A stretch of 64,000 nt of DNA, from assembly GCA_965178125.1 (NCBI GenBank), contig OZ237735.1:620001-684000 (forward strand), read 5' to 3'. Shown here one piece after another: positions 425 through 31,976 of the stretch. The notes beneath the pieces were generated by a model. The model saw only the letters and a program-made list of their open reading frames with translations. It made no database searches and was not told the origin of the DNA. The stretch is from Bilabrum cf. latius (lineage: Eukaryota). The translations under genes were made by a program, and so were the position numbers. The first letter of the stretch is position 1. Each line of letters opens with the position of its first letter.

Positions 425-437
425 ACTATATAATATT

Positions 438-9484: not shown

Positions 9485-9561
9485 CATCATTATTATATAA
9501 AATATTTAGTATTAATATTAATTTAATTTTAATTATCCCTCTATATTACTTTTTTTTGGAA

Positions 9562-9678: not shown

Positions 9679-9686
9679 AAAATATT

Positions 9687-10250: not shown

Positions 10251-10288
10251 TAATATAAATAATGACTAGAAAATTATTCAAACTTTAT

Positions 10289-11350: not shown

Positions 11351-11443
11351 ATTATAATTTAGTATAGATAATATTTATATAATAGAAAATATTTTTTGAA
11401 TTTGACAAAAAAAGAAAGGTAGTCATGCAACAATTTTAAAATG

Positions 11444-12307
11444 TTATTTAATTAAACGCTTGAATGCCTTAATTTCGTTTTTAACGTCATTTGTGATATA
11501 AGAATGTAATTTTTTCATAACTTCTTTTTGTATTTTACTAATATTTTTCATTTTAAAATCTGATTTCTTAAGATCCAAATTAAACATATTCTTTAATCTG
11601 ACCATTAAATCTTCCTTTATGTTGTTCATCACAAAGTTTTTAGTTGCCGTTGTATCTCGTACATTTTTAAGTGCTTCAAGTCTTGCATTAGTAAGATATA
11701 AAAAACCCACATTGTCAGAACTTAACAAACTATTAATTTCTTCCATTTTATCGTCGTATCCTGTTCTTCGGTATATCTCACGCAATCTCTTAAGGGCTTT
11801 ATAATATTTTCCTTCTTTTTCCAATTTCATGGCGTCTTCTATTAAATCTTCTGTTATTTCATCTTTAGTTTTTCCCATAATTGAATCACCAAAATCATAA
11901 ATTATCGTAACCTCTTCATAATACCCATTAGTAAATACTATTAAATCAAGTTTAACCCATTTTTTATCTTGTTTAATATACTTTGGGTTTTCTAGTTCAT
12001 CAGCAAGTAATTTGATAGCTTTTCTTTGTGTTCCTGCTTTCTTTTTACCTATTTTAAGTTCACTAACATCTATGTGATCACCAATGTCAATTAGAAAGCT
12101 GAATAGTTCACGTAAAAGCAGTTTATATTGTTTCATTTCTAATTTCATATATAAATCGAGATCAGAAGCAAAAAATGAAATAGGGAAAGAACCATTTAAT
12201 AACATATCTGCATCTTTTATTAACATAAGATCTTTAAACAATGCGGAATGGTCAGTATTAAATAGTTTGATGGTTTTATTGTTAATTTCCATTATATAGA
12301 ATAACAT
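11444..12307 (-). CDS. Putative Pol-beta-superfamily nucleotidyltransferase
   Basis: LLNGSFPISFFASDLDLY (GS...DxD) and a candidate third Asp in WVKLDLIVF, followed by a helical C-terminus. Confidence 0.5.
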   Translation of the reverse strand: MLFYIMEINNKTIKLFNTDHSALFKDLMLIKDADMLLNGSFPISFFASDLDLYMKLEMKQYKLLLRELFSFLIDIGDHIDVSELKIGKKKAGTQRKAIKLLADELENPKYIKQDKKWVKLDLIVFTNGYYEEVTIIYDFGDSIMGKTKDEITEDLIEDAMKLEKEGKYYKALKRLREIYRRTGYDDKMEEINSLLSSDNVGFLYLTNARLEALKNVRDTTATKNFVMNNIKEDLMVRLKNMFNLDLKKSDFKMKNISKIQKEVMKKLHSYITNDVKNEIKAFKRLIK

Positions 12308-12340
12308 AAGATTAATTTTTTTCTAGTGTAAATATATTAT

Positions 12341-13735
12341 ATGTCAACTGAATTAAGAAATATACTAAGACAGCAAAATATAAGACGTCAAGAATCCAAT
12401 AAAGGAGTAGAAAATAGAAATTTAAGTTTAAAGAATGAAAGACAATCTATTTTAGAAGCTTTAAAGAATCAACAAAGACAAGATGATATCGTATTAAGCA
12501 CACAATTTCAACCCCTAGAGCTAAGAAGAAGAGAAAAAAGAATGGATGGTATTCTAAGAAATTTAGTTACTGAATTGGTTGATGGTCTAAATAAAGACGA
12601 TGATACTAAAATTAAGGTAAATTTAGAAAGAATGAAGGAAATAATAGTAAAGGAAAACCCAAGCATATCAATGTTAGGGCAATTGGGAAAATTTTTAGAT
12701 CAATATCAAAATAAAATAGATTTATTGGGATTGTCTAAATCTAAAAAAACATCACTTAAAAGAACTGCACAGGAAACGGAAAACCTCGCAATATCTAGTT
12801 TGACAAGTGATGAAGATTTTAAAAAAATGATTAAAAGCCTAGACACACCTAATATTGATAAATTTTCAAATGATGATCTCGAGGTGTTTAGAGATTTATT
12901 TAATTTAGATCCTGCAATAAATAAAACAGATTTAAAAAACCTTATAAAAACAATCTTGGGTGATGATGTGTCTAAATATCTAGAGGGCGAGGTTCAAATT
13001 GATCGTGAGATAGTCAGTGCAACAAGAAATTTAAGAAATGTATTAGAACAATTTACCAAAGAACAGTTATTAGAACAATACTTTAATGAAGATGCAGTAG
13101 AAACATTTAAAGCAGATTATAAGGAAGATTATATAAAACAAGCACTAAAAAGTAAAAAAGGCATGATTGATTTTCTTGTTAGAGAATTTTATAATATTAA
13201 TGAAATTGGAGAACCTCCAATTTTAGAAAATATAGACGACATTGATTCACTTCCAACGGGTGAATTTATGACAATGAAAAAGGTGTTTAATGATTTCCTG
13301 TCTATGTTAATGACTGATGAAGCCCTAGAAGAGAAAGGATTATCAAGACAAACAGTGTCACGCATGACAAAAAAAAGATTTAAGGATCTATACGAAGAAT
13401 ATGTAGAAAAGTCACCTATTAAACGATTATATAATGTTCTTCTTTCCGTTGAGAATGATACTGTAACGAAAGAAGCACGAGAAACATTAGAAGCTATCAA
13501 GGAAGAAGCTCGAAAATTAAGAGAAGCACAGGATGCCCTTACAAAGAGAGTTGCAATAAGAAAAATAACGGAGGCACTGGAAAATTATGGATTAACTAAA
13601 AGAGAAGCAAGAAGAAGAAGAAGAATGGAAGAACTAGAAGATGAAGATGAACGAAGAGAAGATGAAGAAGGTGATTCTACAGATGATGAAGAATCTGACG
13701 GAATCGCTGTTGGTTTCGATAATGTTGATGAATAA
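12341..13735 (+). CDS. Helical/coiled-coil hypothetical protein with acidic tail
   Basis: 464-aa ORF with TCTA promoter; ends TAA. Confidence 0.8.
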   Translation: MSTELRNILRQQNIRRQESNKGVENRNLSLKNERQSILEALKNQQRQDDIVLSTQFQPLELRRREKRMDGILRNLVTELVDGLNKDDDTKIKVNLERMKEIIVKENPSISMLGQLGKFLDQYQNKIDLLGLSKSKKTSLKRTAQETENLAISSLTSDEDFKKMIKSLDTPNIDKFSNDDLEVFRDLFNLDPAINKTDLKNLIKTILGDDVSKYLEGEVQIDREIVSATRNLRNVLEQFTKEQLLEQYFNEDAVETFKADYKEDYIKQALKSKKGMIDFLVREFYNINEIGEPPILENIDDIDSLPTGEFMTMKKVFNDFLSMLMTDEALEEKGLSRQTVSRMTKKRFKDLYEEYVEKSPIKRLYNVLLSVENDTVTKEARETLEAIKEEARKLREAQDALTKRVAIRKITEALENYGLTKREARRRRRMEELEDEDERREDEEGDSTDDEESDGIAVGFDNVDE

Positions 13736-13806
13736 AATTAAAAATATAATTGTAAAATAATATATTAAATTAAAGTTAGAATAAATTTCTAATCTTAATT
13801 TATAAA

Positions 13807-15855
13807 ATGAGTATATCTAATTTACTATCAAATAATAATTTGGATCTTAGAGCTAGTCGTGTCATTGTTTCAAATACAAGAATAACAGAAAATACCCAAC
13901 TAGCAACGAAGGAATATGTCGACGCAGCTATAGCAGGGGATGGTGCAAATATCGATCAAGTTTTGACCATTGGAGACAATGCAAACGGTCGTAACATTCA
14001 AAATGTTGGAACTATTGGAACTACTGGAAATGCAAATATTGGAGGTAATGTAAATGCCAATGCTTTAACTTTAGAAGGTTTTAGTTCTGCACATGACAGC
14101 GGATGGGGTACAACCATGACAATCCCAGAAGGTGCATTATTGATTGAAGGAGGAGACCCAACAGCTAACTGGAAACCTGCTATGGGTGTTTATTCCGATG
14201 AAAGAAATGGAGAAAGAAATATATATTTTTGGACAGGTAATAAATCAGGAAATCAAAGAACTACAGGATGGGAAAATTACAATTTATATTTAGGTTCAAC
14301 TGTTGACTCAAAAGTACAAATAAATGTAGATGACACTACAGATTCAAGTGATCACACAAATGGTTCTATTGTTTCCGCTGGTGGTGTTGGTATTGCCAAA
14401 AATTTAAATGTTAATGGTGATATTAGTACAAATGGTAGTGTACATGTAAATGATATTCAGACAATTTTACCAAATAAGGTTTTAAATTTGAACACCAATA
14501 ATCCCAACACAAACGAAGGTATATGGATAACTGGATATAATCAAAATGGGGCGATGTTTGGGGGTGGTTGCTTTCCTGCAGGACCTAGACAAACAGATTA
14601 TACACATATTGGATATAATATAAAGTATGATTTATCAAATCAAGTATTTGACCCAACGACGCCCAACACTAATTCAAGAAATGGCATGTATATGTCCGTT
14701 GGATATGAAGGATTCAGTGTTACAAAAATCCCAAATACTAATATTTCAGGTGACCCTAATAAAGAATTATTTAGGGTTGATGTGGGGTTAAATGATTCAG
14801 CACCAGAAACAATTATTTCGAAAGTAGATCATACATTTGAACAAAACGCAGACGTTAAAGGTGATTTGTCCGTAACTGGTACATCTTCATTATCCAACGT
14901 GTCCGTTTCTGGAACTCATGGAGTCACTGGAACATCCACACTAGGAGCATTAGAAGTTAACGGATTAGTTAATTTTAATAATACAGATAATGAAAGCGTT
15001 GTATTTGACGGAGGAGTTAGAATAAATAAAAGTATCATTGTTAATCAAAACTTTTTAGTTCAAGGGGACGGCAATTTTACAGGCAATGTTACTATGGGCT
15101 CAAATCTTGCAGTCACTGGAACTTTAAACGTCACAGATGCAACAACATTAAACGATTTAGATATGAATAATACTAAAATTACAAATTTGGCAACTCCTAC
15201 ATTGTCAACTGATGCAGTAACTAAAGCTTATGTGGATAATTTGCCATCAACACAATCTAATTTATCTTCAGTGTTAACAACTGGTAATGATGCTAATAAT
15301 AATTCTATCATTGGATTAGAGAGTATTACATTTGGTAATACTAATGTAGACGCTAAAATTCAAACTTCAGAAATACTAATTAATGGATCATATCATACTA
15401 AATATGATACACAAGATGGAAAAGAAACAAGTAACTCTATATTTCCAAGACGGGGACTAAGAAATCAAGAAATTATCGATCCTAATACTAACACGTTCAC
15501 AATTCAACCTGGAATAAAAGATACTTTTAGATACATAGGAGTTATGACAAGAACTAATCTATTAGAAATAACAATTAAACTGGCAGTATTTAAAAGTACA
15601 AATAATGATCCAGCGGTAGTTCATAGAATACTAATAGAGAATTCACCATTAGTATCTATTCGCTATGAAACAAGTAATGTATCGAATGGGAATTCAATTG
15701 CGACAACCGCAGGGATTTACGAATTTAACAGACAGACAAATACAACAACAATAATGAATACCCCAGTTAATCGTAATTATAATTTACAAACTATGGAAAT
15801 AGAATTATGGTCAACAGGTAATGTTAATGGTGCTTGGTGTTCTAGAATACAATAA
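13807..15855 (+). CDS. Fibre/spike-like structural protein
   Basis: N/T/G-rich beta repeats; two ATKxYVD-type motifs (LATKEYVD, AVTKAYVD), each followed by VLTxGxxAN. Confidence 0.65.
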   Translation: MSISNLLSNNNLDLRASRVIVSNTRITENTQLATKEYVDAAIAGDGANIDQVLTIGDNANGRNIQNVGTIGTTGNANIGGNVNANALTLEGFSSAHDSGWGTTMTIPEGALLIEGGDPTANWKPAMGVYSDERNGERNIYFWTGNKSGNQRTTGWENYNLYLGSTVDSKVQINVDDTTDSSDHTNGSIVSAGGVGIAKNLNVNGDISTNGSVHVNDIQTILPNKVLNLNTNNPNTNEGIWITGYNQNGAMFGGGCFPAGPRQTDYTHIGYNIKYDLSNQVFDPTTPNTNSRNGMYMSVGYEGFSVTKIPNTNISGDPNKELFRVDVGLNDSAPETIISKVDHTFEQNADVKGDLSVTGTSSLSNVSVSGTHGVTGTSTLGALEVNGLVNFNNTDNESVVFDGGVRINKSIIVNQNFLVQGDGNFTGNVTMGSNLAVTGTLNVTDATTLNDLDMNNTKITNLATPTLSTDAVTKAYVDNLPSTQSNLSSVLTTGNDANNNSIIGLESITFGNTNVDAKIQTSEILINGSYHTKYDTQDGKETSNSIFPRRGLRNQEIIDPNTNTFTIQPGIKDTFRYIGVMTRTNLLEITIKLAVFKSTNNDPAVVHRILIENSPLVSIRYETSNVSNGNSIATTAGIYEFNRQTNTTTIMNTPVNRNYNLQTMEIELWSTGNVNGAWCSRIQ

Positions 15856-15886
15856 ATATAAATTTTTTTTCTAATAATATAGTATT

Positions 15887-16459
15887 ATGAGTATAAGCAA
15901 TTTATTAACTTCAAATAACCTAGACTTAAAAGCTAATTCTATTGATGCAATAGATGTTAAAAAGAAAGGTCAAGCTTTGACATTTAATGGATATCACTTT
16001 GTCCAAAATAGAGGAAATGGAACTACTCCTATAACTTTAAATGCTCCAGGAAATATTTTCGATGGATCAACTTTTACCGTTGCAGATACGGCATTATCTA
16101 TCATGGGTGGAACGTACAATATGCCAATAGACAACACTTATAATTGTATCATTAAATGTAATATGTCATTTATTAATACGAATACTTCAGCTGTCAGATC
16201 TGCAGGTATTGCCTTTCAATTTCAGAATGCCTCAGATGATACATGGGATATTAACCCTTCTAATTGTCCCGTGATGTGGCATATTATAAATCCTGAATCT
16301 ACCCAAACAATACAATTAGTACATTCATTAGATTCAAATCATGGATATAAAGCAATACGTTTAATGTTTGCTGGTGAGAATTCAATTGATATTGATTATA
16401 GCTCAAATAATCCAACTAGAATATGTTATTGCACTTTAGAACGTTTCTATAGTTTGTAA
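15887..16459 (+). CDS. Short fibre-like/structural protein sharing its N-terminus with the upstream gene
   Basis: MSISNLLTSNNLDLKA versus MSISNLLSNNNLDLRA. Confidence 0.65.
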   Translation: MSISNLLTSNNLDLKANSIDAIDVKKKGQALTFNGYHFVQNRGNGTTPITLNAPGNIFDGSTFTVADTALSIMGGTYNMPIDNTYNCIIKCNMSFINTNTSAVRSAGIAFQFQNASDDTWDINPSNCPVMWHIINPESTQTIQLVHSLDSNHGYKAIRLMFAGENSIDIDYSSNNPTRICYCTLERFYSL

Positions 16460-16519
16460 TTAAATATTAGTTATAGATAGAACAATAAATTAATATTTTT
16501 TTTCTAATATTAATTTATT

Positions 16520-17188
16520 ATGAAATATACAGTTAACGAATATTTGGACCTTATAGGTTCTGGAAAACCTAAACGTAAAAACTCTAAGGGAAAACAAACC
16601 AATGAACATAAAGAACATGTACAAGCTGTAATGGAACTTTTCGGAATGGGTAAATCTCAAGCTGATAAATTATGTTATGAATGCGAAGAGAATGCAAGAG
16701 TAAAAGGTGGCTCATTTTGGAAAAACTTGCGTAGGGGTCTTTCCAGAGTTGGTAATACCGTAAAACGTGGAGTTTCTAAAGTTGGCGATGCAGTAAAAAG
16801 GGGCGTAAGAGATCTTAAAAATATGGATACTGATGATGTTCTTTATTCTTTGGGTAAAGTAGCAACGAGTCAGATACCATACGTAGGAGCTTATGCTACG
16901 GAAGGCTTAGATGCATTACAACATCACAGAAAATACAATGCTAAAAAGGCAAGTAAAAACGCTTTAATTGATGTTGGTACTTCCTTTTTACCTCCAGGTG
17001 TTAGACAAGTTAGTAATTTTGCATTAAAGAAAGCCACGAAAGGTATGGGCAAAAAAGCTACAGGAGGTAAGAAACGTAAGGTATCACAAAAGATGAAAGA
17101 ACGTGGAGCTATGATAAAAAAGATTATGAAAAATACTGGAATGAAACTAGGAGAAGCATCAAAATTCCTAAAGGAGCACGGAAAGTAA
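16520..17188 (+). CDS. Basic virion core/membrane-lytic-like protein
   Basis: Lys-rich; VKGG-SFWKNLRRGLSRVG amphipathic segment after a di-glycine motif. Confidence 0.6.
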   Translation: MKYTVNEYLDLIGSGKPKRKNSKGKQTNEHKEHVQAVMELFGMGKSQADKLCYECEENARVKGGSFWKNLRRGLSRVGNTVKRGVSKVGDAVKRGVRDLKNMDTDDVLYSLGKVATSQIPYVGAYATEGLDALQHHRKYNAKKASKNALIDVGTSFLPPGVRQVSNFALKKATKGMGKKATGGKKRKVSQKMKERGAMIKKIMKNTGMKLGEASKFLKEHGK

Positions 17189-17245
17189 TAAATACGAATG
17201 AATTTTATTCTATTTTTATTAAAGAATAGATTAAAACTATTTGGA

Positions 17246-17527
17246 TCAATTCAAAACATCAGTTTTATAAACTGGAATAACTCCATATTTTTCTTTATAT
17301 TTTGTTTCAAGATTATTTAGTCTTTTTTCTAAATTGACCCTTGCATATCTTAGATTATCTTGTAATCGGTTATGATGTCCCATGGAATCAGAAGGTAGAT
17401 ACATAAATTTTAAACCACCACGTATGAAATCACTTAGATCATTTAATTCGTTATGTATATTTTTTAATTTTAATATTAGTCTTCGTGCTCTTTGAATTTT
17501 TCCGTCTAAACATTTTCTATGGTTCAT
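17246..17527 (-). CDS. Hypothetical protein
   Basis: 93-aa ATG ORF in AT-rich DNA, divergent from the next gene. Confidence 0.55.
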   Translation of the reverse strand: MNHRKCLDGKIQRARRLILKLKNIHNELNDLSDFIRGGLKFMYLPSDSMGHHNRLQDNLRYARVNLEKRLNNLETKYKEKYGVIPVYKTDVLN

Positions 17528-17537
17528 ATATATTCAT

Positions 17538-17849
17538 ATGGATATTAAATTATTAAATATTAAACCATCTACAAGAAAGAATAAAAGATTAATGGCAACA
17601 TTTAAATTAACTAAAAAAGGTTATGAACCAAAACAATATATTGTGCATTTTGGGGCTAGAAATGGAAAAACATACATAGACCATCAAGATAATAAAAAAA
17701 AAGTCAACTGGCTAAAAAGACACAAATACTATATAGAAAAAGCTGATTATGTCCCTTGGTCTGCTCCTGTGTTAAGCTGGAGAATATTATGGTCAAAGGA
17801 CAATTTAAAGGATGCAATAGATAATTATAGAAAGACTTATAATTTATGA
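17538..17849 (+). CDS. DUF5754-like small basic protein (common in NCLDV/virophages)
   Basis: PSTRKNKRLMA...VHFGA...YIDHQD...WLKRH pattern. Confidence 0.65.
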   Translation: MDIKLLNIKPSTRKNKRLMATFKLTKKGYEPKQYIVHFGARNGKTYIDHQDNKKKVNWLKRHKYYIEKADYVPWSAPVLSWRILWSKDNLKDAIDNYRKTYNL

Positions 17850-17879
17850 GAAACAAACTTTAAGAAAAATCTTATTGAA

Positions 17880-18500
17880 ATGTATATGTCAATGTTGAGT
17901 GATCTCCTCGATAAAAACACAAAAGATAGACAACAGGATCAAATATTTGTAGAATGTTATATAGGTTCAAAAATTACCCCACTATTAAGACTTCGTAAGT
18001 TTTTAATGGAACGTTATCCTCCTGAATTCTTTAAAAATGGAATTATTAAAAAAGACTTATTAAATTTACATAACACAGTAAATCGTATCAAGAAAGAGAG
18101 AACCGAATTATTATCAATCATATATGAAAAATATAATAAACTAACCAAAAATGAAAAAAGGAAATTAAGATGTCAAATGCCACTAGATTATAAAAAAATA
18201 TTCAAAAATGAACCAATACTCGTAAATCGAAAGTTTACAAGTTTTAGAAAACCATTAATTGATTATATTCAAGAATATGTAAATATGGATTTTATAATGA
18301 GACTTGAAGACGATATCGATGAATATCTATGGGGAAAACCCCTTGATGAGGTTATTGACCATTTAAATGAGAAATCTAATAAACATCTAGAAAAGTTATA
18401 TTTATGGCAACTGAATAAAAAAGAGATAACGGGCTTTATGAAAGTTGAAATAGAATTTAGAAGAATGCAAGAAGAAATTTATATAACCACTCATTTATAA
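17880..18500 (+). CDS. Hypothetical protein
   Basis: 206-aa ORF in AT-rich DNA; ends TAA. Confidence 0.7.
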   Translation: MYMSMLSDLLDKNTKDRQQDQIFVECYIGSKITPLLRLRKFLMERYPPEFFKNGIIKKDLLNLHNTVNRIKKERTELLSIIYEKYNKLTKNEKRKLRCQMPLDYKKIFKNEPILVNRKFTSFRKPLIDYIQEYVNMDFIMRLEDDIDEYLWGKPLDEVIDHLNEKSNKHLEKLYLWQLNKKEITGFMKVEIEFRRMQEEIYITTHL

Positions 18501-19203
18501 ATCCGTAAAGTTCTTTAAAGCATGTACATTAAAATAATTATTCTTTTTATGAGGGCTGGTATAAAATGTCACTTGATCAGGATTCATAAATTGGGCTAAA
18601 TTATGACTTACAGGGTCGCCATCTACAACATGATATTTAATATTACCAATGTTAAATTTAGGGTCTCTTATCATTTCAAAATTTAAAGCTGGATTAAATG
18701 AATGTCCTTTAATTTCTTTACCGTATTTTTTAGTAAGATATGCAACCATCCCAGAACCCAGTGAGTGAGAAGCAAAAGAAATATTATGATCTGGAAAAGC
18801 TTGTTTGACAGCTTCATAAATATCAACTAGATCTTTAAAGTTTTCACTTTTATCTAGTGTGCCTTGTGCTATCTTTAAATCATCCATAACGTCCGATCCG
18901 TCAACTGTACCCCTAACTCCAATAATGATATTTTTATTTTTAATATAAATTTTTCTTCTATCATCTTTAAAGATTACACGATAACCGTCTATTATATCCC
19001 TTTGTTTAGTCTTTGGGTATGTTTGACGTGCAATTTTAGCGTGTAATTTAGCTTCCTTACTTAATTGCTGTAGTTTCTTATTTCTTCTTGTTAAAAATCT
19101 ATAAGTTCCCACGGGTACATCTTTAATAAATTCCCAGACATTCCCGCCCTTTACTCGTTTTTTTAAAATTTGTATAATTTCTTTTTTTGTCAATTTATTT
19201 TTT
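18495..19203 (-). pseudogene. Class-3 lipase/alpha-beta hydrolase, interrupted in codon 2 by Ngaro (first 5 nt ATGCC at 25868-25864)
   Basis: IGVRGT, ASHSLGSG nucleophile elbow, DGDPVS, C-terminal H. Removing 19204-25863 restores ATG CCA AAA AAT AAA TTG ACA. Confidence 0.85.
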
Positions 19204-19379
19204 TGATCCTAACGCCGGATGGGGTTCGGTGTTGATGCCAGAGTGGGAGCGCGTGAACGTCTCGTTGGGTTCCGATGGCGGTTGCGACCGGGAAGGTGCG
19301 ACCAAGCCAACGGATTGCTTGCGATGACGCGCATACCCTCTCTGTGTTCAGGAGAGGGGCGGAGATTGGGTAATTTTTG
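19204..19379 (+). repeat. Ngaro repeat A1
   Basis: Matches A2 (25532-25707). Confidence 0.95.
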
Positions 19380-19407
19380 AAGAAAGTTCCTGCTCCGTTC
19401 ATTTAAC

Positions 19408-22400
19408 ATGAACAGCGCCGGTAGCCATCGGATCGACCCGGCGGCGCGCGGGGCAGCAGGCAGCGCCAGGGTGATCGCCGCAGCTGCAGTGTTCGCTCGC
19501 GCGGTAGGCCAACCTGCGGTCACGTTGGCCGATTTAGCTACTCGATATGGTATGAATGATGCTGTGTTCTCGGATTTCATTGCTCGTCTCAACGTGCAGC
19601 GCGACACCATGGCACCTCGCGATCCCGATCTTCGACGTTCACACGATGCGGGGTTCCTGTGCTACTTGCTCGACAGGTACTCATCAAAGCAGTCCTTTAC
19701 GGCATCACGGTCCATTAATGCTGTCAAGAGCACCGCTCTCGCCAGGTTCGTGTCAAATGGGACGCTAACGACTCTCGGTGCACGGCTGCTTCTGCCGGCG
19801 TCGCCGAGCTCTCCTCGACGGCAACAGCCTGAGCGACTCGCAGGACAAGTACATCTTCATCCTGTTCAGCAATCTCCAGAGGCTCCTTCTTCAATCGAGT
19901 CTCCATGGTCCCTGAGTTCACTACCGACGGGCCGGGGGACAGCTTCTCTTCGCGGACAGCATCGGCCACCAGGACGCCTCGACTTCGGCGCCGCCATCCA
20001 TGCTTCACCTGGACGCGACCGAGCGGCGTAGAGTGCCACCAGGACAAGCCGCGGAATTTCGCCCTTGCGGGCGCGGCCAGGCTCTTCGACGCGGCCGACC
20101 CCGCTCGCGCGGGGCGGGCGGGCCCACCTGCACGAGTCCCCGAACCGAGGGCCCCCGGGGACAGCAGCAGATACCCAGCGCAGCGGCCAGCCCAACTTCT
20201 CAACGTCTTCACCCCCGCGGCACCAACCTCCACCTGCCTCGGGCAGGCTCCCCGGTAGGCCAGGCACTCGGGACTTCGGCGATCCGACAGTGCTCGCGGA
20301 GGCGCTCAGCAGTGCAGCATCACGGTCAACGGGCCCGGCAGGCCCTCAGCTTCTTCTTCCTCGTGTGTCTCCGGCTTATGACTCCCCCGGCGTGACTCCG
20401 GGAACCAGCCGCTAGCTTGATGCGGTCTGGGGCCGCCTTCCTGGGGATCTCCAACGGGCAGTGTTGCACTCCACGACGCTGCGGGGAAAGGCCGACCCAG
20501 CGACAATTCTGCATCTACGCCTGTTTGCGCTGTGGCACAGCATTCCGACTCTACGCCAGCAAGAGCTGCTGTCGCACCTCTCCGCCCACGTGGAATTACA
20601 ATGGTACTTCTAGCACCGACTGGCAGCTTCGATGCACTCATCCCCGCCACCGGTCGACGTTCTACCCGCTCATCAGCCTCCCCGTGAACCTCCTGTCTCA
20701 TCTTCTGCCTCACCGCAGCCTGCGTCTTCAATTGACCCAGTTTCACCGGGCGCAGGCACGGCAGTGGACTCCGCGGTCGGTCGCTCGCAACCAGTGGAGA
20801 ATTTGTAGCGTGAGGCCTCTGCACCTTCAATCGCTGCAATTCGAATGCAGAATTGGTTTTCTGATGATTTCTTGGCAACGTTGACCTCGATCTTTCGCCA
20901 ATCCGCGTTCATGCCGCGGTTTTGCTAGGCTGACGCGCTTCATTTGGACGCTAGCGGCCGCGATTTCGCTGCCGAACTGGCCCGTGCCCTGTTTGGTCAG
21001 GCTGTGACGAGAGCCAAGATTGAATCGGCTATTTTCTCGTTCACGAGCCGGCTTCATGCAGCTCTGCCGATGAGCAATGCTAGTTTTGGGGAGTTTGATG
21101 CGTCCAACTCGGAGTCGTCTGCTGCAGGCGGACGAGACAAGTAGGTACCATCTAGCGAGTTACTATGCACTATTTACTCGGCTATTTCCTTTGCTTTAGG
21201 CTGTGTGCTTGTGCGGGCTGCTTGCGTGAATTCGACGGCGTCCTTGCCGTCCTGGTTGCCGCAGGGCAGCAGCTCGTGGTAGTGTCCAGCATCACTAGTG
21301 CCCGATTGGAAAACCTTAGGGCAGGTTCGCAATGATTTTCTTCGTTTAGTTAGTGCTTCCGGGGCATCATCTGCATCGGCGTCCAGACTAGAGGTGGTGT
21401 TTGCCGCTGTGTGTGTGATACCACGCGGAAGTTCAGCTTTTGAGATGCTCTCATCCCATGCTTGGCGCCATACAGGCGAACGCTGTGACGTTGAGATTCG
21501 TGACCTTGTTGGGAATGAGATTCCATCGTGCTCTTCTGGCGACTGCATGCGTCTCCTACAATTGCTGCATCCGTGGGCCACTGAGGCATGCAGATCAGGC
21601 GAACCTGGCCTCGTGCGCGGACTGCTACAGGGAGTCCAGGCTGACATGCAGGCGCCGTCCCGTCGAGCAGCACTGTCCCGTCACTTCGACCCCCGCGGGG
21701 GCAGTGGAGGCCGGGGCAGTGGAGGCGGGGGCAGTGGAGGCTCCAGGCGCAGCGGGGGTGACAGCGACCAGCCCAGTGCCGATCGTGGCGGAGGTCGACA
21801 CCGTCGAGGCCGTGGACGTGGCGGTGCAGGCCAGCAAGGTGGCCAGCACCAGCGTGCGGACCGGCAGGACGGGGGTTCCACCAGGAAGTCCAAGGAGCCT
21901 TCACCTGACCCCCCCCCACGAGGTACGTCACGTCAGAGCCAGCCCAGCACTCCAACACCAACACTGCCGCAGGGGCGTACGCAGACTACCACCACATCGG
22001 ACGCGTGTGCTGCTTCCACACCACCTGTCACGTCAACGCCCGCGCTTCACCCAGTCCTGGTGGCCCTAGCGCGCCCTAAGCGACCGCAGCGGCCGCCCAC
22101 GGCGTCATCCACGAGGCTGCCAGGTAGGACGGACATCTCTCCAGCATTCGTTGACTGGGCATATCCAGCTCCGGATCCAAGCCATGAGTGGGCAGGGACG
22201 ACAGCACCCTCCGTCGAGGACTTCATACAGCGAAAGGACGATCACCAGCGTATCAGAGAATGTCCCGGCGAATTCGTGGAGGCTCCAGCTGCGACGTGGG
22301 ACCGTGAGCGGCTCCACCTGAAGGTTCACGACGACCCGCTGGCATTCACGCCACGCAAGTACTTCGACAAGGTGCCTCGCTAGACTGCAACACTGCGGAC

Positions 22401-25167
22401 CCGGCGGGAGGTTCTGTTTGGCGGCCGCACACCGAGGAAGGCCCCGTCCCTTGCCGAGTTTAAAGCCCTCCCACGAGTCGAGCGTGTACTGGCAGCACTG
22501 AACTATGGTTGCCCCCTAGCCATCGTGGACGAGGTGCCCAAAGAGCACGATCTAGACTACAAGGACCGTAAGCTGTCTCCGGAAGAAAAGTGGGAGATCG
22601 CCTGCGAGATCGGGCGCTCCATGCGGGCTGGCGAGCGTGACTTCGTGTCACCCAAAGATTTCGACACAGCCCGGGCCCGGCCGCTGGTGATCCCCAAGAA
22701 GGACTCGACAAAGCTACGGTTCCTTCAGGACTCCTCACTCAAGGTGAACGGCCAGCGTACCGGTCTGAACAAGGCCATCGACTACAGTGCAGCCACGCCT
22801 GTGCAGCAGACGAGCAGCATGGACGTGCTGCGCTCGGCAGCCGCAGCAGTTCGATCCTGCCCCAAGCGTGCCAGCGGATACGTCGTCGACATTTCCTCGT
22901 ACTTTCGGGTCCTGCCGGTGGCAGTGGAGGATCTCCAATACAACCTGATCAAGCTGCCCGACGGGCGCATCGTGCAAGATTTCAGGCTCTCTATGGGCAG
23001 CTCATCATCTCCCGCCTTCGCAACTACGATCAGTTCGGCTTTGGCCCAAGCCCTCGAGGAGCAGTCCATTGGCAGGGCCATGCGACCCGGACGGAGACAC
23101 AAGCAGAAGCAACGACGCCGGAAGCAGCAGCACGCCAACGCCCAATCCAGCACGACGGACCAGGCGCCCCAGGCGAACTCGTCAGCAACGTCCACCCCGC
23201 CTGCCGCTAGCACGACAACGGGACATGTCAAGACGGCCCAAGACTAGTCCCGCCATTGGTAGGTCGAAAATGAGGTGTTTGTAGATGACTTTGCCTGCCT
23301 CGGCGGAGATCACGAAGTCGATGCATGGGCAATTCGAGCCATGGGGCAGCTGGACTCCACAAACTTCCCCGTCAGCATCTCGAAAGCATTGAAGCAAGGG
23401 GCCCCAGCCCCGGTGTTCGAGTACTTGGGCCTCACCTACGACTTGATCAAACACGAGGTGCGGTGCCCTAAGGACAAGGCCAACGACGTCCTGCGCAGAC
23501 TGCACGAGGCACTCACGACGAAGGGGATGCTACTGTCTAGCTTTGAGACCTTGGTCGGCAAGTTGTCCTTCCTGTCGGGCGCACTTTATGGTATGCGCGG
23601 TGCTCTACGTCCCCTGTATGACGCCAAGGGCTGGGCCCTTCACAAGTAGGCCAGCCGGTCACGACCAGGTGAGGTGTGGGTCCCCACCTCCTTTGTGTCC
23701 AAGGGTGGCTTCACAGTTGGGGAAATCCTCGAGGGATTCCAGGTGGCTATCCAGCGCAAAGGCGGGCGCAGCTTTCCGATGCGGGGCACCATTGACTGTC
23801 CCATCCTTCGCACTGATGCGTCGGTGACAGGCTACGGCGCCGAGCTGCTTCTCCACGACAAGGACGGCAACATCACTTCGCACACCGGCATCCAGGGCAC
23901 TTGGCCGCATCGCCTAGAGGCGAAGGATGTAGCGGCGGCAGAACTTGCAACATGTTTGTTGGCACTGGCGCATTGGCGACAGCACCTGCGTGGACGTGTG
24001 GTGCGTTTGTGGTGTGATAATGATGCTTCCGTGTAGCTGATACGCTACGGCAGACCCAAGAGCCACATCATGGCAGCCTTACTTCGCCCTATCTTCGTAC
24101 TGCAGACAACGCAAGATGTGCAGATTCACGTGAAACACATTCCTGGCGAGGACAACGTCGTTGCGGACGCTTTGAGCCGCGGCTCACAGGAGGCATACAC
24201 GCACCTGGACGCGGTGTATCAGGTCGACTGTCCCACGCCGATCTGGAACACCTTGTACAAGCACGACCATTTCACGCTGGTGGCCACTCTGGACTCAGTG
24301 GGTTGCGCACGGCGTGGGGGCACTTCGACAACTTCCTCACGTGGTACGACATCGACCGCAGTTTCATGGACGGGCATCTTCCAGCAGCTCGCAGACTCTT
24401 CGCGTTCAGGCTCAATGCAGCGCTCTCGAGATTCGCAGTCTTCTTAGGGGAATGTTCGCCTCTCAGTGGCGGCACCATCGCTACATACACCAGAAATGCC
24501 TAGCGAGTCGTCATCGAGTCCACAGGAGCGTGCGGCGTCCCACGGTCACGCTAGCTCGACAGCATCCTCCGGTACTACCACAAAGCATCGCCATCGGCGC
24601 ACCCGTTGCGTCGATCTTCAGCCCCACTCCGCGCAATCCGACGGTGTTTCTCGACAGCCGGTTGCAGCACAACAGAGTAGGCTGCTCGGACAGCTGTCTG
24701 TCTCTGCTTCTGTGGGGGCCTCCGGCTGGGAGAGCTCGTCGGTGCGTCCAGACGACAAGCCGGCCTCCAATGGCAGCAAGTGCAGTTCATCACGCGAGAC
24801 GGACGCATCCATGGTGTTGCCATCCGCCTGGGCCTCCACAAAGCCGACGGCCCAGCCAAGTTCTCCATCCCAGCCGCAGAGCCCATCGCAGTCCATTGCA
24901 GAGCCGGACGATGGGCAGTCACAGGCAGCAGGTTCTGCGGCGTGCGAGCCTTCGTGGCGTGGGCAGCAGCGAGCCACGCCCCAACTGCAGGCGCAGACGA
25001 AGACTACGCCCGGTAGCTGGCGCTCAGCTGCCCCACGTCAGGGCCAGTCTTCGTGGCGAACACGAAGCCGATCGTCAAGGCGCAGGTAGTACGGGCGCTC
25101 CGCAGCTTCTGCTCACGAGAAGTTGCAGGAGCGGTGCACGGACATTCCATCCGCATCGCGGCAGTGA
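19408..25167 (+). CDS. Ngaro Gag-like/RT/RNase H polyprotein, 1919 aa if TAG=Gln
   Basis: One frame with 14 TAGs and no TAA/TGA until TGA 25165-25167. RT motifs VVDISSYF, LSMGSSSSP, FVDD, YLG. RNase H motifs TDAS, AAAEL, WCDN, HIPGEDNVVADALSR. Confidence 0.85.
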
Positions 25168-25361
25168 TGTGTTTGGACCGTGCTGGGGTCGCCTTCGAGG
25201 TCATTAGGCGATTTGGCAGATGGAAGTCGGCATCTGCATGCGAGGTGTACTTGCGGGGCGTCAGGGAAGGCTTGCCTCCTCTGGAGCTCGGCGGCAGGAG
25301 CCTCGATTTGAACAGGCCAGTGTGGGTGCTGGCCAGCGCGCTGCGGCTGAACTTGGAGTGA
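24303..25361 (+). CDS. Ngaro tyrosine recombinase (start uncertain; frame open from ~24024, first ATG 24366)
   Basis: With 4 TAGs read through: GGLRLGEL (R), HKAD, HGHSIRIAA (HxxR), FGRWKS...VYLR (Y); ends TGA. Confidence 0.85.
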
Positions 25362-25401
25362 GCCACACAGCCGCAGCGTACAAGACATGGCGGTAAGATT
25401 T

Positions 25402-25863
25402 GGCGGAGTAGTGCACGTGCTCTTCCCAGCCCCGGTCAGTCCGGTCAAGGGTCGCGCACAGGCACAGCTTTGTCAGGTCTTGCCATGTCTGATTGTTAAC
25501 GAGACTAGGTTGCGCGTACACTCTGGCATCATGATCCTAACGCCGGATGGGGTTCGGTGTTGATGCCAGAGTGGGAGCGCGTGAACGTCTCGTTGGGTTC
25601 CGATGGCGGTTGCGACCGGGAAGGTGCGACCAAGCCAACGGATTGCTTGCGATGACGCGCATACCCTCTCTGTGTTCAGGAGAGGGGCGGAGATTGGGTA
25701 ATTTTTGCCCACCCTCCCAACCCCCTCCTCCTCGGCGGAGTAGTGCACGTGCTCTTCCCAGCCCCGGTCAGTCCGGTCAAGGGTCGCGCACAGGCACAGC
25801 TTTGTCAGGTCTTGCCATGTCTGATTGTTAACGAGACTAGGTTGCGCGTACACTCTGGCATCA
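25402..25863 (+). repeat. Ngaro B1 (25402-25531), A2 (25532-25707), C-rich spacer, B2 (25734-25863)
   Basis: B1 matches B2 (130 bp) and A2 matches A1, by direct comparison. Confidence 0.95.
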
Positions 25864-25914
25864 GGCATATATAAGTTAACATAATAAAAAAAAATATCTA
25901 ATGTTATATATATA

Positions 25915-26541
25915 ATGGCTTTAGAAATAGCTATTTCATCAGTAAGCGGAGCTTCGGCTCTAGTAGCATTAGGCTATTATGGGGTGTCCTGCATGGGCAA
26001 GGTAAAAAAAGCATTTGACATTAAGAAGGCATGTCTTGTAATTCCCAAGGGATGCGGAAAGACTACATTGTGTAAGAAATTTGAAGGAAATGACACGAAT
26101 CTTTTAGTCGTAGACCTTGACGAATTGGTATCAAAGCATCCAGATACGGACAAATCTTTTTTAGAAGGATTAGAAAAAGCTAGGGAGTCAGGCGATGACT
26201 CAACATATAGGGTATTATATCAAGAACTGGCAAAGAAAGTATACGAATCATTAAAAAAATCATGGTTAACAAAAAAAGAAAAAAGAATGTTGTGTTTGAC
26301 TGGATCATTAGAACTAGCCCAAGAATTATTTAAAAAAACTAGTATTTTCGTTGCCTCACCATCAAATAAATTATTTAAGGATCTTGTATATGAAGCAACA
26401 AATGAAGTACAAGAAGTAATGAGAAGAGAAAGAACAAATTTAATATCCGAACTGCAACCCTCTCAAATATATGTTTATGACACATTCGAAGAGTTAAATG
26501 CAAAATTACAGCTCCAATTTAAAATTAAGCATCACCTTTAA
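25915..26541 (+). CDS. P-loop NTPase/kinase-like protein with hydrophobic N-terminus
   Basis: CLVIPKGCGKTTL Walker A, LLVVDLDE; TCTA promoter; the last 85 nt lie inside the TIR. Confidence 0.7.
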   Translation: MALEIAISSVSGASALVALGYYGVSCMGKVKKAFDIKKACLVIPKGCGKTTLCKKFEGNDTNLLVVDLDELVSKHPDTDKSFLEGLEKARESGDDSTYRVLYQELAKKVYESLKKSWLTKKEKRMLCLTGSLELAQELFKKTSIFVASPSNKLFKDLVYEATNEVQEVMRRERTNLISELQPSQIYVYDTFEELNAKLQLQFKIKHHL

Positions 26542-27459
26542 TAAATTGTAATTTTTTGATGACAAAACCGATGACAAAATTAATATTCTGAACTCTACAG
26601 AAAATATGATTTTAAAAATAAAAATTTCCTGAGACCTCGAAAATCACGTTTTGTCACCGCTTTTGTCACCCTTCTAAAAAAAAGTATAATAGGCAAGTAT
26701 TCTGAAAATATTATTATATTCCATTAATATATTAATATTTAATATTATTAGTTATCTGTATTACTTTTTCAATTGGTGACAGAATTTAAAAAAAATATTT
26801 TATTGTCTTTCTCAGTAAATTAATTAAAATAAATTATTATAATATTATTTCTAACTTTTATTACTATATCACTTTTAAGCGAACGAAGAGAGCGACCCAA
26901 TGCATGAACTCAAATTATAGAGCCATAAATAAAGCAATAAAATATTTTAATGATTAACCCCTTAAAAATTCCCATAATAAAATAAATATGCTTTTTCCAT
27001 TTCTTAAAAACGAAAACAAAAAATAAATAAATTTATTTTCTGCTTTCTGGCGAACTTTTTTTAAAATGTGAGCCATCCGCCAAATTGTACAAATTATAGA
27101 AATATAATAAATATTATTTGATGATCCATTTATAAATTAAATTCTTCGAATTTAATTATTTTCATTCTATCGAATAAAAATAAATTTTGATAAAAATCAA
27201 TAAATTGATTTAATCTTAATCCGCGAAAATATTATAAAAAAATAAAAAGTATAGCATGTAACGAATTATAATTATTCAATATATTACAACAAAATTATTA
27301 TTTTATAAAAAATTTAATTATACAAAAAAATATAAATAAATAAAAAAATAAAAGTGAATATATGGACACATTAAAAAAGTGAAGCATGCGTGACGTAGTC
27401 CGAAAATAAAATAGGAATATAATGTCATTATATTCCTATTTTATTTTCGGACTACGTCA
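26457..27459. repeat. Right terminal inverted repeat (~1 kb; outer part inferred)
   Basis: 26457-26573 pairs with 1-117; the remainder is AT-rich and non-coding up to the host junction. Confidence 0.8.
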
Positions 27460-27460
27460 C
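27390..27460. repeat. Perfect terminal palindrome (35-bp arms, 1-nt centre)
   Basis: gtgacgtagtccgaaaataaaataggaatataatg-t-cattatattcctattttattttcggactacgtcac. Confidence 0.97.
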
Positions 27461-30400
27461 CGCCTCGAGTGCATCCTGGATATCCTGCGCGGATGACCTA
27501 TCACCGCCCTACACGACCTGCTCTACTACCTTGGACACGTGCACCTCCAGCACTTGCGCGGCAGCGGCAGCTGTCGATGGCCCCGCTGCATCCTCTGGAC
27601 CCCCCGCAGCACCAGCACCAGGCCCAGGCCCAGGCTGGCTGCTGGCGGCGCCGCCCCCGGCCGAACCCTCGCTGCTTGTCACGGCAGGTCCAGCTGCACC
27701 AGATACGGGCTTGCCACTCGTCATCGTGACCAGTCCGACCTCACCGGGGCCCCGATACCGCGCGTCGCACGCAAGCAGCCAATCCACGCACTGGAGCGCC
27801 CTGCTCCCGTCCAAGTCCTCAGGCCGCATCTCGGCAGCCTCAGGCTCCGAGGAGTCGCCACCTTTCGACTTGGACCCGCCACTGTCGCGCTTGCCACCGC
27901 TTGACTTGTCGCCATCACCGGTTCCAGGCTCCTCTAGCCCAAAGGCGACGGAGTCGGCCCACTCCCTCACCATCCCGATGGTGACCCGGCCCAGGCACGG
28001 GCGCAGCGCATCGACGATGCGATCAATCGCTTCCTGGGAAGCTCGCACGAAGGTCTGTCTGCAAGCATCCGCCAGCACGCATTCCTCGATTGCTGCTGTA
28101 GACAGGTACGCCACGTGTGCGCCCATGGTGAGCAGTGCCTGCAGCTCAAAGTGCTCGCTGGGGTCCAGCTCAAAATCGCCGACTTCGTGCTTGCGCGGAG
28201 ACCTCGAGTAGTCCAGCTGCTCGAGGAGCTGCCACATCGAATGCAATCGCTGAGCATGCAGCTTCTTGACGGCTCTGCTGAGGCCAGCGCGCCGGAATGC
28301 AACGCCGATGCTGTCGGCATGGAGGACGTCCCCGTGGACCACCGATTTTGCCGAAAGCGATGCTGGCTTGCTACCTGCACCCTCTGGGACACTCGTATCC
28401 TCGCCGCTCGTGTGCATGCCCGCCAGTTTAGTCTTGTGCTGAACCCGTGCGATCAAGCGAAGGCCAGCTCCCTCGCTGCTGGAGCTAAACGCGTCGGCCG
28501 CACCAGCTGAGGCCTGGTCGCTGGGGTGTTCCGCGACGCACCTTGACTGTGCCACGGCTTTGGAGTGGAGCATCAAGCTGCGAACCATGTAGCCGGCAGC
28601 GCGGGCGCTGACGCCGATGAGTGGGTAGCCTGCCGTATCGTGTCGGGATGCGAGGCGAAGCACGTCGAGCAGCTGCCACTCCGACACGAGTCCTGCGTGC
28701 TCGACAGCAGCCGTTTCCACAGCTTCCAGTGCCGCAGCATACCCATTTACTGCTTCGTGGAATACGGACCTGAACAGCCTGCGAGCAGAGGCCCTGGCCC
28801 CAGCGTCGTCGCCGGGACGACATCCGACCAGGCACAGGCCCCTCACGGCTGAAGGCTTGAACCGAAGGCAGTCCTTGACTCTCTCTACCACCCGAGCATC
28901 GCACATTCCAGCCTTCTTCGCGTTGTCGCTTTTCTCCAGTACACCCCGCAGATCACCCACCGTGACGGCATCTGCAAAGTGCGCAAGCGACGCGATGTAC
29001 CTCGCAGCCCCAGCCGCTCGCAGCAGCCCATCGCACGGCGCGGCCTCCGAAGTGATGCGTCTGATCCAGCTTTTCTGCTCCCTCGCCTGCACAGCAACGG
29101 TAGGATCATGCGCCGCGCCGTCGCCCTGGCTCAGCGCGACTTGCCCCTCGATCCCAGCCGCCGCCAGGGGGTCCTCCCCGACCGCCAGCAGGTCGAGCAC
29201 CGCGCCCTGCTTGCCTCTCATGAGGGTGCGACCCGTGCGAATGAACGCAGCGATGCGATCTTGCAAGGATTCAAGCACCTCTGGCTCTACTCGGTCACCC
29301 GTGCTGCATGCTCTGCCTCCTGCACCCAGAGCTGCGCTGCACAATTTGCTCACCTGGGCGAGTGACAGGCTGTTGGGTGGCACGATCCTTGCTGCTTGCT
29401 CTGCTGCGGATTTCACATCGGCTGTCACAATCACGTCAGTTGATGCTGTTGACGATCTACGAAGCACGATAGGCTGCTGCAGACCCACCTTTGTGTCCTT
29501 CTGGTCAATGCTTCCCTGCTTGACTGCTTCTGTAGGAGATTCAAGCCCCAGTGCATCGGCACCCGGAATACCTCGCCCCCCCTCAATGGTCTCCTCCTGC
29601 GAGAAGCACTCCATGATGCGGCGCTCCACCTGGGTCGGCGAGCACCACGCGAACTCCTTCATGGCATCCTCGTCGCCGGCACGCAGGGCCGCCAGCTGCC
29701 TCTGATGGCCCCGGATGGTGACCCCGTACTTGCTGAAGGAGCCCGGGTCATCAACGTCGATGTCATCCACGGTGATCACCCCCTCGCTCTCGAATCCCGG
29801 CAGGTACTGCTCCATGCCCGCCCTGAACAGCCACTCGTGTATGGACATGAGGTTCCCAACGGTAGATATCTTGCCCTGCGCCTGCAGCAGGCTGTCCACG
29901 GCCGCCTGGCTGCTTGCAGCGCGAGGGTCGTCCCTGTGCTTGAGCAGGTGCCCTTGCAGCGCCGCGGGTGCCAGTTGCTTGCGACTGCATCGCTGAGCGA
30001 ATGTCTGGGCCATCATCTCCAGCTCTTTCGTGGTGAAGGCCGCTGCTGCAGAAGACTTGCTCGGAAACTATCTGCCCGTTGGGTCGGCTTGACCTGCGCC
30101 CGCGTCGTTCGAAGCGGATGGCTTTCCCGACATTCGATCCAGGGCCTCGGCATCCTCCTCCTCATGACCGTCCTGCTTGCCCCCTATTCGCCGCTGAATG
30201 CCGTGCGAATAGAAGTGCGTGAACATCTTGCGCATCTGATTCGGAGACGCGTAGTCGAGCTTGACGTGCACATCACAGCGGCCCGGGCGCACGAGGGCTG
30301 GATCGAGCTTCTGCAGGTGGTTGGTGGTCATGAACACGACTCGTCCTTGTTGAGAGGCCACCCCGTCCAGGGCGTTTAGGAGACCAGAGAAGGAGACGCC

Positions 30401-31510
30401 GACGCCTCCCTGGCTGGCGGCCTGCCGTTGCACGAATATGCCGTCGATGTCCTCTAGCAAGAGAATGGAGCGCGGAGGAGATTTCTAGAAGAGCTGCATG
30501 AGTCTGCGGTCGTCCACGCTGTTCCCCGCTAGGTTGACCACGCACACGTCCAGCTTTGGCTCCATCGCTCCCGCGATCGACATCACCGTGCTGGTCTTGC
30601 CGGTCCCTGGCGGGCCGTGCAGCATGTATCCGCGTCGCCATGGGACACCCCGGTCATCGTACCACTTCCTAGACGCAAAGAAGCGGTTCAAGTCAGCGAG
30701 CAGGTACTCCCCGATGTCCACCGTGCTGCCGTCAGGGCCGGCGGTCTTGTCGAGGATCACCGAGGAGAGGGGGCGAGGCTTGCGGGAATCGACCTTCATC
30801 CAGGTGCGCCAGCTGTAAGGGTGTGTAACAAATACTCTGGTGTTTTGCTGTTCTTCTTGGAAGGCGTACAGCTGCGCCTCGGCCACTAGTGTCTCGAGCA
30901 CCTTGCGATCCAGGCCAAGAGTCGAGATGCGCAGGTACCTGCGCACAGTAGGCTGATTGTCCCAGCCTTCCGTGCTAGGCTTAGCGCTCCAGCGAGTTAT
31001 CCACATGATACGCCCAGAGTACAGCAGCAAGCTCATGCCATCCCCCTCGTCAAACTTGAGAGGAGGCGGACCGCTGCCCTTCGTTTCCTTTGCCTTCCGA
31101 CGGTCAATTTCTACACGGGACGCGCGCGATGTAAGGAGCGTGTAGCTAGGATGATCTTGCAGCCACGTGCTGATATGATCGAAGCTGTCATCGCTAGATT
31201 CGACCGTGAGCTGGACGACTAGTTGGCCCCTGGCCCACGACCACCAAGCTGAAGCGTTCTGATAGACCTTGGCCCCGATCACGACGGCAAAGCCCCAGAC
31301 CCATGGCATTGACAATAAATCTACGATCCATCCACCCGCTTTGCTGTGAGGCTCTCCGTGTTCCGAACCAGGAGAATCCTCATCCGCGGTGCGCTCGGAT
31401 ACCTGCTCAGCGTCCTAGATCTACGTCACGACAGACTAGTTATCAGCTCCGAATGCAAACAAGACATTCAAACTACAAAGTACTAGCGAAAATACAGGGC
31501 TGTAGATCAT
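27461..31510 (-). CDS. Host BCS1-like AAA ATPase with SAM domain(s) and long C-terminal extension; 3' end runs into the virophage
   Basis: BCS1_N-like region, RGYMLHGPPGTGKTS, LLEDID, GLLNALDG, LDPALVRPGR; SAM-like WLFRAGMEQYLPGF...GHQRQL. Single frame joined by TAGs at 31436, 30485, 30068, 27509 and others. Start uncertain. Confidence 0.8.
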
Positions 31511-31976
31511 TAGTACGCTTGCTGAGCTGACTCTGATGCCCAAGAACAGATCGCAAAACAGCGGATTCAGACTATGAACTTCCGGTTTTGCGCGAATTGT
31601 CGGGAATAGCTTGACCGGCCTCGTTGCCCAGCCTGGTTTGATATACAGGGCTGGCATGGTGAACCACGACCCCTTTGATGGCTCGCTGGCAGGGCGTCAG
31701 CCGCAGGACTGCTGAGAGGGCGACCACTGGGCTAGAGGCAGCGGTTGGGGGTCCGCTGGAGCCACCTATCGAGCGGCGTGCTGCTGTGCCTACCAAGGCT
31801 GCCCGTGAACAGTCCGGTGATCAAGCTTTAAGACGAGTTTAGAACGACAACGGTTGCTGTACAGGCGCAGATTGCAGGCACTAGAGTCTATGACTTCGGT
31901 TGTTCCGGAGTGTTTTGAAACGTGTACTTTCAGCCGGCCAGGCGAGGCCTCATTTCCATTCCAGCTTCTGTTTCTT

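Follow-up and report, generated by a model that had tools for sequence, protein, structure and literature searches.

Introduction

Ngaro retrotransposons have already been described from the endogenous mavirus-like elements (EMALEs) of Cafeteria burkhardae (PMC8547959). In this study, we analyzed a stretch of 64,000 nucleotides (hereafter the window; contig OZ237735.1 of assembly GCA_965178125.1, Bilabrum cf. latius, positions 620,001 to 684,000) in which a Ngaro element interrupts an integrated virophage. The two systems are alike in many respects: both have the order A1-ORFs-B1A2B2 around their open reading frames (ORFs), both encode a reverse transcriptase (RT), an RNase H and a tyrosine recombinase, both form a GC-rich insert of ~6 kb in an AT-rich virophage, and both are accompanied by solo repeats and 5'-deleted copies. 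The present Ngaro differs in that it needs UAG to be read as glutamine (UAG=Gln) and in having ORF1 and ORF2 joined in one frame, and its deleted copies lie in low-GC DNA (12 of 13), whereas the ORF1-deleted copies of C. burkhardae lie in host DNA. The explanation that we favor, and hold with considerable confidence, is that this is an intact and recent Ngaro whose clade has long lived in UAG=Gln hosts and was recoded by drift, and that the TAG-free virophage carrying it is most likely a newcomer.

There are precedents for integrated viruses written in the code of their host. The Maverick-Polinton-type elements of Streblomastix strix use its TAA/TAG=Gln code, which has been taken as a sign of long association (PMC10120064, in the part of that paper that was available). 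In comparison, TAG alone is reassigned here, the viruses are virophages whose capsid resembles that of mavirus, and recoded types are found side by side with TAG-free ones, including a sister pair that spans the two states. The code itself, UAG=Gln with UAA kept as a stop, is known from Iotanema spirale and from the ciliates Protocruzia tuzeti, Hartmannula sinica and Trochilia petrani (portions of PMC5304391 and PMC11687900), and the likeness to those cases extends to a tRNA(CUA), as predicted, and an eRF1 that differs at Leu69. Our host differs from them in being a probable bicosoecid stramenopile whose eRF1 itself has two TAG codons, and its tRNA is nearer tRNA-Tyr than tRNA-Gln(CUG), the source predicted in PMC5304391. 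Recoded organisms have also been discussed as a barrier to viruses and plasmids (excerpts of PMC6207430 and PMC11903333), where a code difference likewise stops foreign genes; the case here is natural and eukaryotic, and it is exit that would be blocked, entry costing only read-through. The literature covered, which takes in few subscription papers, contained no report of a UAG=Gln stramenopile, nor of a single genome whose virophages differ in code state, and the same holds for the accessible parts of the Halocafeteria preprint (10.64898/2026.07.28.741278) and PMC12220804.

Structure of the Ngaro element

The Ngaro spans 19204-25863, more than the coordinates given in the initial annotation, and has the following features:

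19204..19379, + strand: repeat A1, 100% identical to 25532-25707; left end set by empty-site comparison
19408..25167, + strand: single ORF of 1,919 aa that comprises a putative Gag region, RT, RNase H and a tail not under selection; 14 TAG codons, taken as Gln
24024..25361, + strand: tyrosine recombinase frame, -1 relative to the long ORF, 4 TAG
25402..25531, + strand: repeat B1 (repeat comparison)
25532..25707, + strand: repeat A2 (repeat comparison)
25734..25863, + strand: repeat B2 (repeat comparison)

The long frame (19408-25167) was found to contain 14 in-frame TAG codons, at 20029, 20413, 20611, 20806, 20926, 21142, 21280, 22381, 23245, 23260, 23647, 24034, 24445 and 25087, and no TAA or TGA before its terminal TGA at 25165. 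The recombinase frame (open at 24024-25361) has four more, at 24501, 24552, 24678 and 25014, again with neither TAA nor TGA. The positions in the 5,760-nt ORF, and the count of four in the tyrosine recombinase (YR) frame, are exactly those that had been claimed. Based on base composition, 35 TAA and TGA codons would be expected in the 1,919 codons, and the probability of finding none is ~7e-16. Two of the TAGs (24445 and 25087) fall where the tail of the long ORF runs over the recombinase frame. The split direct repeats, laid out as A1-ORFs-B1-A2-B2, follow the order of Ngaro elements (DIRS order), and, as the initial annotation had stated, they match each other, both A1/A2 (176 nt) and B1/B2 (130 nt) being 100% identical.

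In Pfam, an RNase H-like domain (PF13456, E 8e-6) was detected at aa 1506-1591 of the long ORF. The element itself fell under the reporting level for the RT family (PF00078), which was matched by 8 of 10 relatives tested, although for three of the four closest relatives only below the cut-off. An FVDD motif recognized by eye in the long ORF is presumably that of the RT; an RT profile had zero matches in PDB. The recombinase frame matched PF00589 below the cut-off (E 3e-4), is 63% and 42% identical to the recombinases of relatives, and has the His-x-x-Arg and Tyr residues that match the description in PMC8547959. Neither Ngaro frame had a Pfam match to an rve (DDE) integrase, and Rfam had zero matches in 19000-26000. 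The Gag region also had no match in Pfam and is named from its position only; it is homologous to the metagenome relative L144, under selection and fused to the RT.

A start of the recombinase at 24366, its first ATG, as previously given, is contradicted because the frame is conserved from ~24237, 43 codons ahead of that ATG, and because two relatives have no ATG in the region. A canonical slippery heptamer was found at the recombinase start in neither the window nor L144, and one (CCCTTTC) is present in the family L139. We also noted a 13-nt stretch (24289-24301) that is identical in three families (the window, L139 and L144) and in which both frames are constrained.

Genomic copies, selection and insertion

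Eight full-length copies of the Ngaro, 98-100% identical, were found in the genome together with many deleted copies (these counts are lower bounds). All eight have 15 of the 18 TAGs in common (11/14 in the long ORF and 4/4 in the recombinase), and the other three (20611, 21280 and 25087) are TCG in other copies. None of the seven other full copies has a new stop, and in six of the seven the indels are all in frame. The comparison of copies proposed in the initial annotation therefore found TAG positions that are shared rather than randomly distributed.

Selection was assessed from the ratio of nonsynonymous to synonymous change (pN/pS) in five copy comparisons. Values were 0.24-0.50 in the Gag region and 0-0.33 in the RT-RNase H region, and the recombinase had values of 0.26-0.35 in four of five copies and 1.06 in the fifth, the latter on 4 changes. 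In four of the five comparisons the tail of the long ORF gave no sign of purifying selection, with pN/pS at 1.1-2.25 or synonymous changes lacking altogether; in the copy that has diverged most, the tail had a value of 0.59. With its identical repeats, near-identical copies, open frames and purifying selection, the element appears as young and intact as had been proposed, and judged on these features it is an intact and probably recently mobile Ngaro retrotransposon. TAG makes up 14 of its 109 Gln codons (13%), near the share in the host (272/2,824 in the dyneins and 74/464 in eight window genes), which fits drift and gives no sign of selection for TAG.

YR elements insert without a target-site duplication. 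The empty site in the C36 copy of the virophage consists of the left flank joined to the right flank, i.e., the insertion was made without such a duplication, and the same joint (19203 to 25864) is also present in one contig of run X5. The insertion lies in codon 2 of a 237-aa virophage gene. Low-GC flanks were found for 8/8 full copies and for 12/13 A-capped deleted copies (both flanks at most 45% GC). Deletions are nested (L009, L010, L012, L013, L016, L019-L026, L029), beginning at the A1 end and retaining the 3' end; copies that join the A1 end to varied internal points are as would be expected of incomplete reverse transcription. At least five further Ngaro-like families (L139-L143) were observed in the genome, all with in-frame TAG and several with tandem repeats in ORF1.

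Contigs of four runs (X5, X7, X8 and X10) were also compared. At five TAG sites, three independent runs had no change among the changes listed. Runs X7 and X8 contained the Ngaro together with long host-gene pieces at 0 differences from this host, so these runs contain this host whatever their organism label. Run X5 contained the virophage, the Ngaro and the empty site, and run X10 short pieces only; the high Ngaro depth in X8, a library of unsure kind, was not used as evidence. Regions that the contigs did not cover (the virophage in X7 and X8, most host genes in X5) were likewise given no weight. No Ngaro copy in a standard-code host was seen among the four runs. The initial annotation had named near-identical TAG-containing copies active in standard-code hosts as evidence that would speak against it, and the copies in X7 and X8, under other labels, are those of this host.

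Genetic code of the host

To examine the code, we used 19 stretches of dynein heavy chain from this genome, which amount to 60,152 codons with 272 TAG, and considered columns that were at least 70% conserved. TAG was opposite Gln at 20/30 of these columns and opposite Tyr at 0/30; CAG was opposite Gln at 218/288 and CAA at 22/28. ORFs longer than 3,000 codons carry up to 47 TAG. One eRF1 exon has a TAG at its end (position 44), where 100/100 homologues have Gln. A second TAG is at position 69 (homologues: Leu 93, Gln 5, Asn 2), a position tied to UAG recognition in the available part of PMC5304391, and Ser60 is replaced by Val, a residue present in 0/100 homologues; the GTS, NIKS and YxCxxxF motifs are retained. 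The eRF1 gene (L081, ~1070-2941, +) would itself require TAG read-through twice, a possible feedback on termination.

A single tRNA(CUA) gene with a full cloverleaf was found (L033:1501-1573 (-), i.e., G000:C23:907607-907679) when 63 of 780 tRNA candidates were scored. Its acceptor stem equals that of tRNA-Tyr(GUA) in 6/7 pairs and its D arm resembles tRNA-Gln(UUG), so that an origin from tRNA-Tyr is possible. The reading TAG=Tyr that this tRNA suggests is ruled out by the alignments, with Tyr at none of the 30 dynein columns and at 1/22 sites of a sister virophage. Overall, the dynein columns, the invariant Gln of eRF1 and the tRNA(CUA) gene agree with the UAG=Gln lineage of the initial annotation, and support a host that reads UAG as Gln and keeps UAA and UGA as stops.

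The mitochondrial genome (38.4 kb) uses TGA=Trp, as is known in bicosoecids (PMC6723347, partial text). Homology searches with eRF1 and cox1 returned no decisive named neighbor for the host. A second 18S rRNA gene, at G000:C95 (L079), is unlike the C12 array (L080) and perhaps belongs to another eukaryote in the assembly.

Relatives of the element

Two metagenome relatives, with 31-33% protein identity to the element, have frames interrupted by TAG and by neither TAA nor TGA: L144 (1,841 codons, 7 TAG) and L147 (846 codons, 9 TAG). In a quick tree of 56 rows, with 45 of the distant matches kept, all eight elements with DNA at hand for reading fall in one clade of 12 rows (Shimodaira-Hasegawa-like approximate likelihood ratio test, SH-aLRT, 99). 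Two rows of the clade that are available as protein only (P0003 and P0248) break off at positions occupied by Gln or TAG in relatives. These TAG-only open frames support long residence of the clade, and the long-term residence in a UAG=Gln lineage that had been proposed is upheld for the clade: the data support a Ngaro clade that has probably long been resident in protists reading UAG as Gln. A first RT scan of metagenomes had zero matches, and there was no named Cafeteria Ngaro protein among the matches of the protein searches. The metagenome contig of one relative (L145) was assembled in circularly permuted form, carries a tandem repeat of 366 nt and is perhaps the result of assembly collapse.

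Virophages in two code states

The carrier of the Ngaro and its neighborhood have the following features:

1..27459, no strand assigned: endogenous mavirus-like virophage, ~28% GC, genes without in-frame TAG; starts 886 nt left of the window
438..1328, + strand: penton (minor capsid); PDB 6G41, E 2e-45
1399..3189, + strand: major capsid protein, no TAG; PDB 6G45, E 3e-55; PF22031
3256..4433, + strand: rve integrase in two ORFs (97 and 265 aa); Pfam and copy comparison
6331..6504, + strand: solo A repeat of the same Ngaro family; missing from the C36 copy
6543..9044, - strand: primase/helicase-like gene; PF19263
9195..9489, + strand: solo repeat of a related element; missing from the C36 copy
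18495..19203, - strand: 237-aa virophage gene with weak alpha/beta-hydrolase matches, cut by the Ngaro; empty site in the C36 copy
27428..31657, - strand: host BCS1-like AAA gene, 7 in-frame TAG, 3' end cut by the virophage

By its capsid and penton (Atlas 0.97), terminal inverted repeats (~1 kb), 5-nt target duplication (CCGCC) and rve integrase, the carrier is assignable to the mavirus-like virophages (EMALEs); minus inserts it is ~21 kb. In the copies at C21, C36 and C40, a single ORF of 392 aa encodes the integrase. A 353-aa ORF, a candidate packaging ATPase, had weak P-loop matches only, and a 187-aa ORF in which a protease was sought had no match in Pfam, PHROGs or PDB. In 15 large ORFs of the carrier there are 0 TAG compared to 177 CAA/CAG codons.

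The initial annotation had missed that most virophages in this genome are themselves recoded. Of 61 capsid matches, 56 have in-frame TAG (3-11 each) and 5, the carrier among them, have none; those five represent three types, three of the five being near-identical. Among loci around TAG-bearing capsid matches, 16/20 have TAG in most genes (recoded loci L104, L106-L118 and L120-L122, compared with the TAG-free window, L105, L119 and L130-L136). The C36 copy has 19 ORFs, is 93% coding and has no TAG stops (16 TAA, 3 TGA), and the C40 copy has none in 15 genes. A sister virophage at C37 is recoded, with TAG opposite Gln at 11/22 sites (CAA/CAG 30/51) and opposite Tyr at 1/22. It has 57-81% protein identity to its TAG-free orthologues, with synonymous sites near saturation, and under the standard code its coding share is 50% compared to 88-93% for TAG-free elements. 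In the TAG-free C9 type (L119:3826-4164, -), a 112-aa gene lies tail to tail with the adjacent gene and uses TAG as its stop, at the point where its homologues also terminate, as would be expected of an arrival with the standard code. In IMG/VR, two scans found no free relatives of the virophage, a third query being too divergent, so that the frequency of TAG stops among virophages with the standard code has no reference level here.

This presence of two code states among the virophages of one genome is a larger finding than the element itself. The TAG-free minority are most likely recent arrivals from standard-code hosts, and the code may thus tell long-standing residents from newcomers among the stored viruses.

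Outside these main features, we observed that the remainder of the BCS1-like frame appears beyond the left end of the virophage (L063 near 9115), and that an internal hairpin (9562-9678) has 82% similarity to a portion of the terminal repeat, at 26551-26683.

Alternative explanations

If the element were a decayed copy, its TAGs would be nonsense mutations or assembly errors, and stops in endogenous viral elements are indeed often assembly artefacts (PMC10120064, available portion). Against this, the probability that 14 stops arising from decay would all be TAG is ~9e-5, the TAGs are shared by copies on 8 contigs, purifying selection acts on both sides of them, and among the changes listed for the three runs none fell at the five sites examined. 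Together with TAG=Gln in the dyneins, the shared TAGs and purifying selection refute decay and assembly error, and we give this explanation almost no credence. An ambiguous UAG in the host, read as Gln or Tyr or as Gln or stop, would fit the Tyr-like acceptor stem and best score of the tRNA(CUA) and the intact stop-recognition motifs of eRF1, but it is very improbable given how rarely Tyr occurs at the dynein and virophage sites and the number of TAGs carried by ORFs of more than 3,000 codons. It is also improbable, if less so, that the carrier is TAG-free because a giant-virus helper supplies its own release factor, which would make TAG hazardous whether it serves as a codon or as a terminator. 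Class I release factors are encoded by Mimivirus and Megavirus (PMC3521657, partial text), and TAG ends none of the 19 C36 and 15 C40 genes; however, the C9 type does end one gene on TAG, and zero TAG among 19 stops is weak evidence of avoidance.

The initial annotation had further proposed that the TAGs act as a firewall, in which a virophage carries the Ngaro to new hosts and the TAGs block its establishment in those with the standard code. The element would be untranslatable in such a host, because under the standard code the long ORF stops after 207 codons and its longest TAG-free piece is 367 codons. The genes of the carrier are read correctly under both codes (the C36 copy has no TAG stop), and it is among the few virophage types that could express their own genes in such a host. 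This Ngaro lies within 20 kb of 5/5 TAG-free capsid matches compared to 14/56 recoded ones (Fisher p 0.002), or within 15 kb of 4/5 compared to 11/56 (p 0.011), where the lists of copies give minimum numbers and near-identical copies account for three of the five TAG-free ones. Virophage transmission is also named as open in PMC8547959. However, this association may reflect AT-richness or age, transfer was not observed in the data examined, and the Ngaro adds 6.7 kb to a genome of ~21 kb, breaks a viral gene and sits in a copy whose integrase is split. Moreover, virophages reactivated from C. burkhardae were without Ngaro, with excision on reactivation inferred (PMC10945749, available part). 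Such a barrier is of consequence only where Ngaros travel from host to host in virophages. A firewall is plausible, but published evidence speaks against the route that it requires, and we consider the firewall rather unlikely.

Several points weigh against the explanation that we favor, an intact Ngaro recoded by drift during the long residence of its clade. The tRNA(CUA) scores nearer to tRNA-Tyr (50) than to two Gln tRNAs (43 and 42). Both TAGs in conserved stretches of PRP8 face residues other than Gln (His/Ser; Pro); this gene, with 4 TAG in 2,791 codons, 2 of them in conserved stretches and neither opposite Gln, was set aside as a code test. The Gln assignment is read from alignments rather than peptides, recent mobility from copies, repeats and open frames, and the probable placement of the host among the bicosoecids from its mitochondrial code and the pairing of Ngaro with EMALE. 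Two clade rows available as protein only (P0246 and P0252) are TAG-free over 607 and 533 aa and may be from standard-code hosts. No TAG position is common to the element and either a 62%-identical sibling family or L144, and residence is thus read from the clade and not from inherited sites.

Proposed mechanism

DIRS and Ngaro elements are copied from RNA by an RT that moves from one split repeat to another; the product is a circle, which the recombinase integrates. For the element in this study, we propose that host ribosomes with tRNA(CUA) would make one Gag-RT-RNase H polyprotein, that the RT would copy the RNA and switch between split repeats to form a circle, and that the recombinase would integrate this circle into AT-rich virophage DNA. 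TAGs would then pile up by drift to the level of the host, and the same drift would have recoded most resident virophages. A resident element in the code of its host is what is expected, and its untranslatability in standard-code cells would be a by-product, a one-way barrier rather than an adaptation.

More tentatively, and with somewhat more doubt than belief, these data could be read as a ratchet. Virophages would enter from standard-code hosts, either free of TAG or with TAG still serving as a stop, drift to TAG=Gln and from then on be confined to the recoded lineage and to giant viruses compatible with its code, while TAG-free types would shuttle between both codes and be targeted by Ngaros, which would be filtered at the code boundary.

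Implications

Annotation under the standard code shatters this intact Ngaro, for which the protein collection has fragments of 240, 124 and 125 aa, and also most virophages of the host. The host adds a probable stramenopile case of the rare UAG/UAA split, with a tRNA candidate, and its genome brings together residents that are recoded, types that are code-neutral and one type in which TAG still ends a gene. Such a genome offers a natural marker for the residence time of virophages and for the movement of virophages and retrotransposons between hosts. If the ratchet is true, TAG content would date the residence, and show the host range, of every element in the genome.

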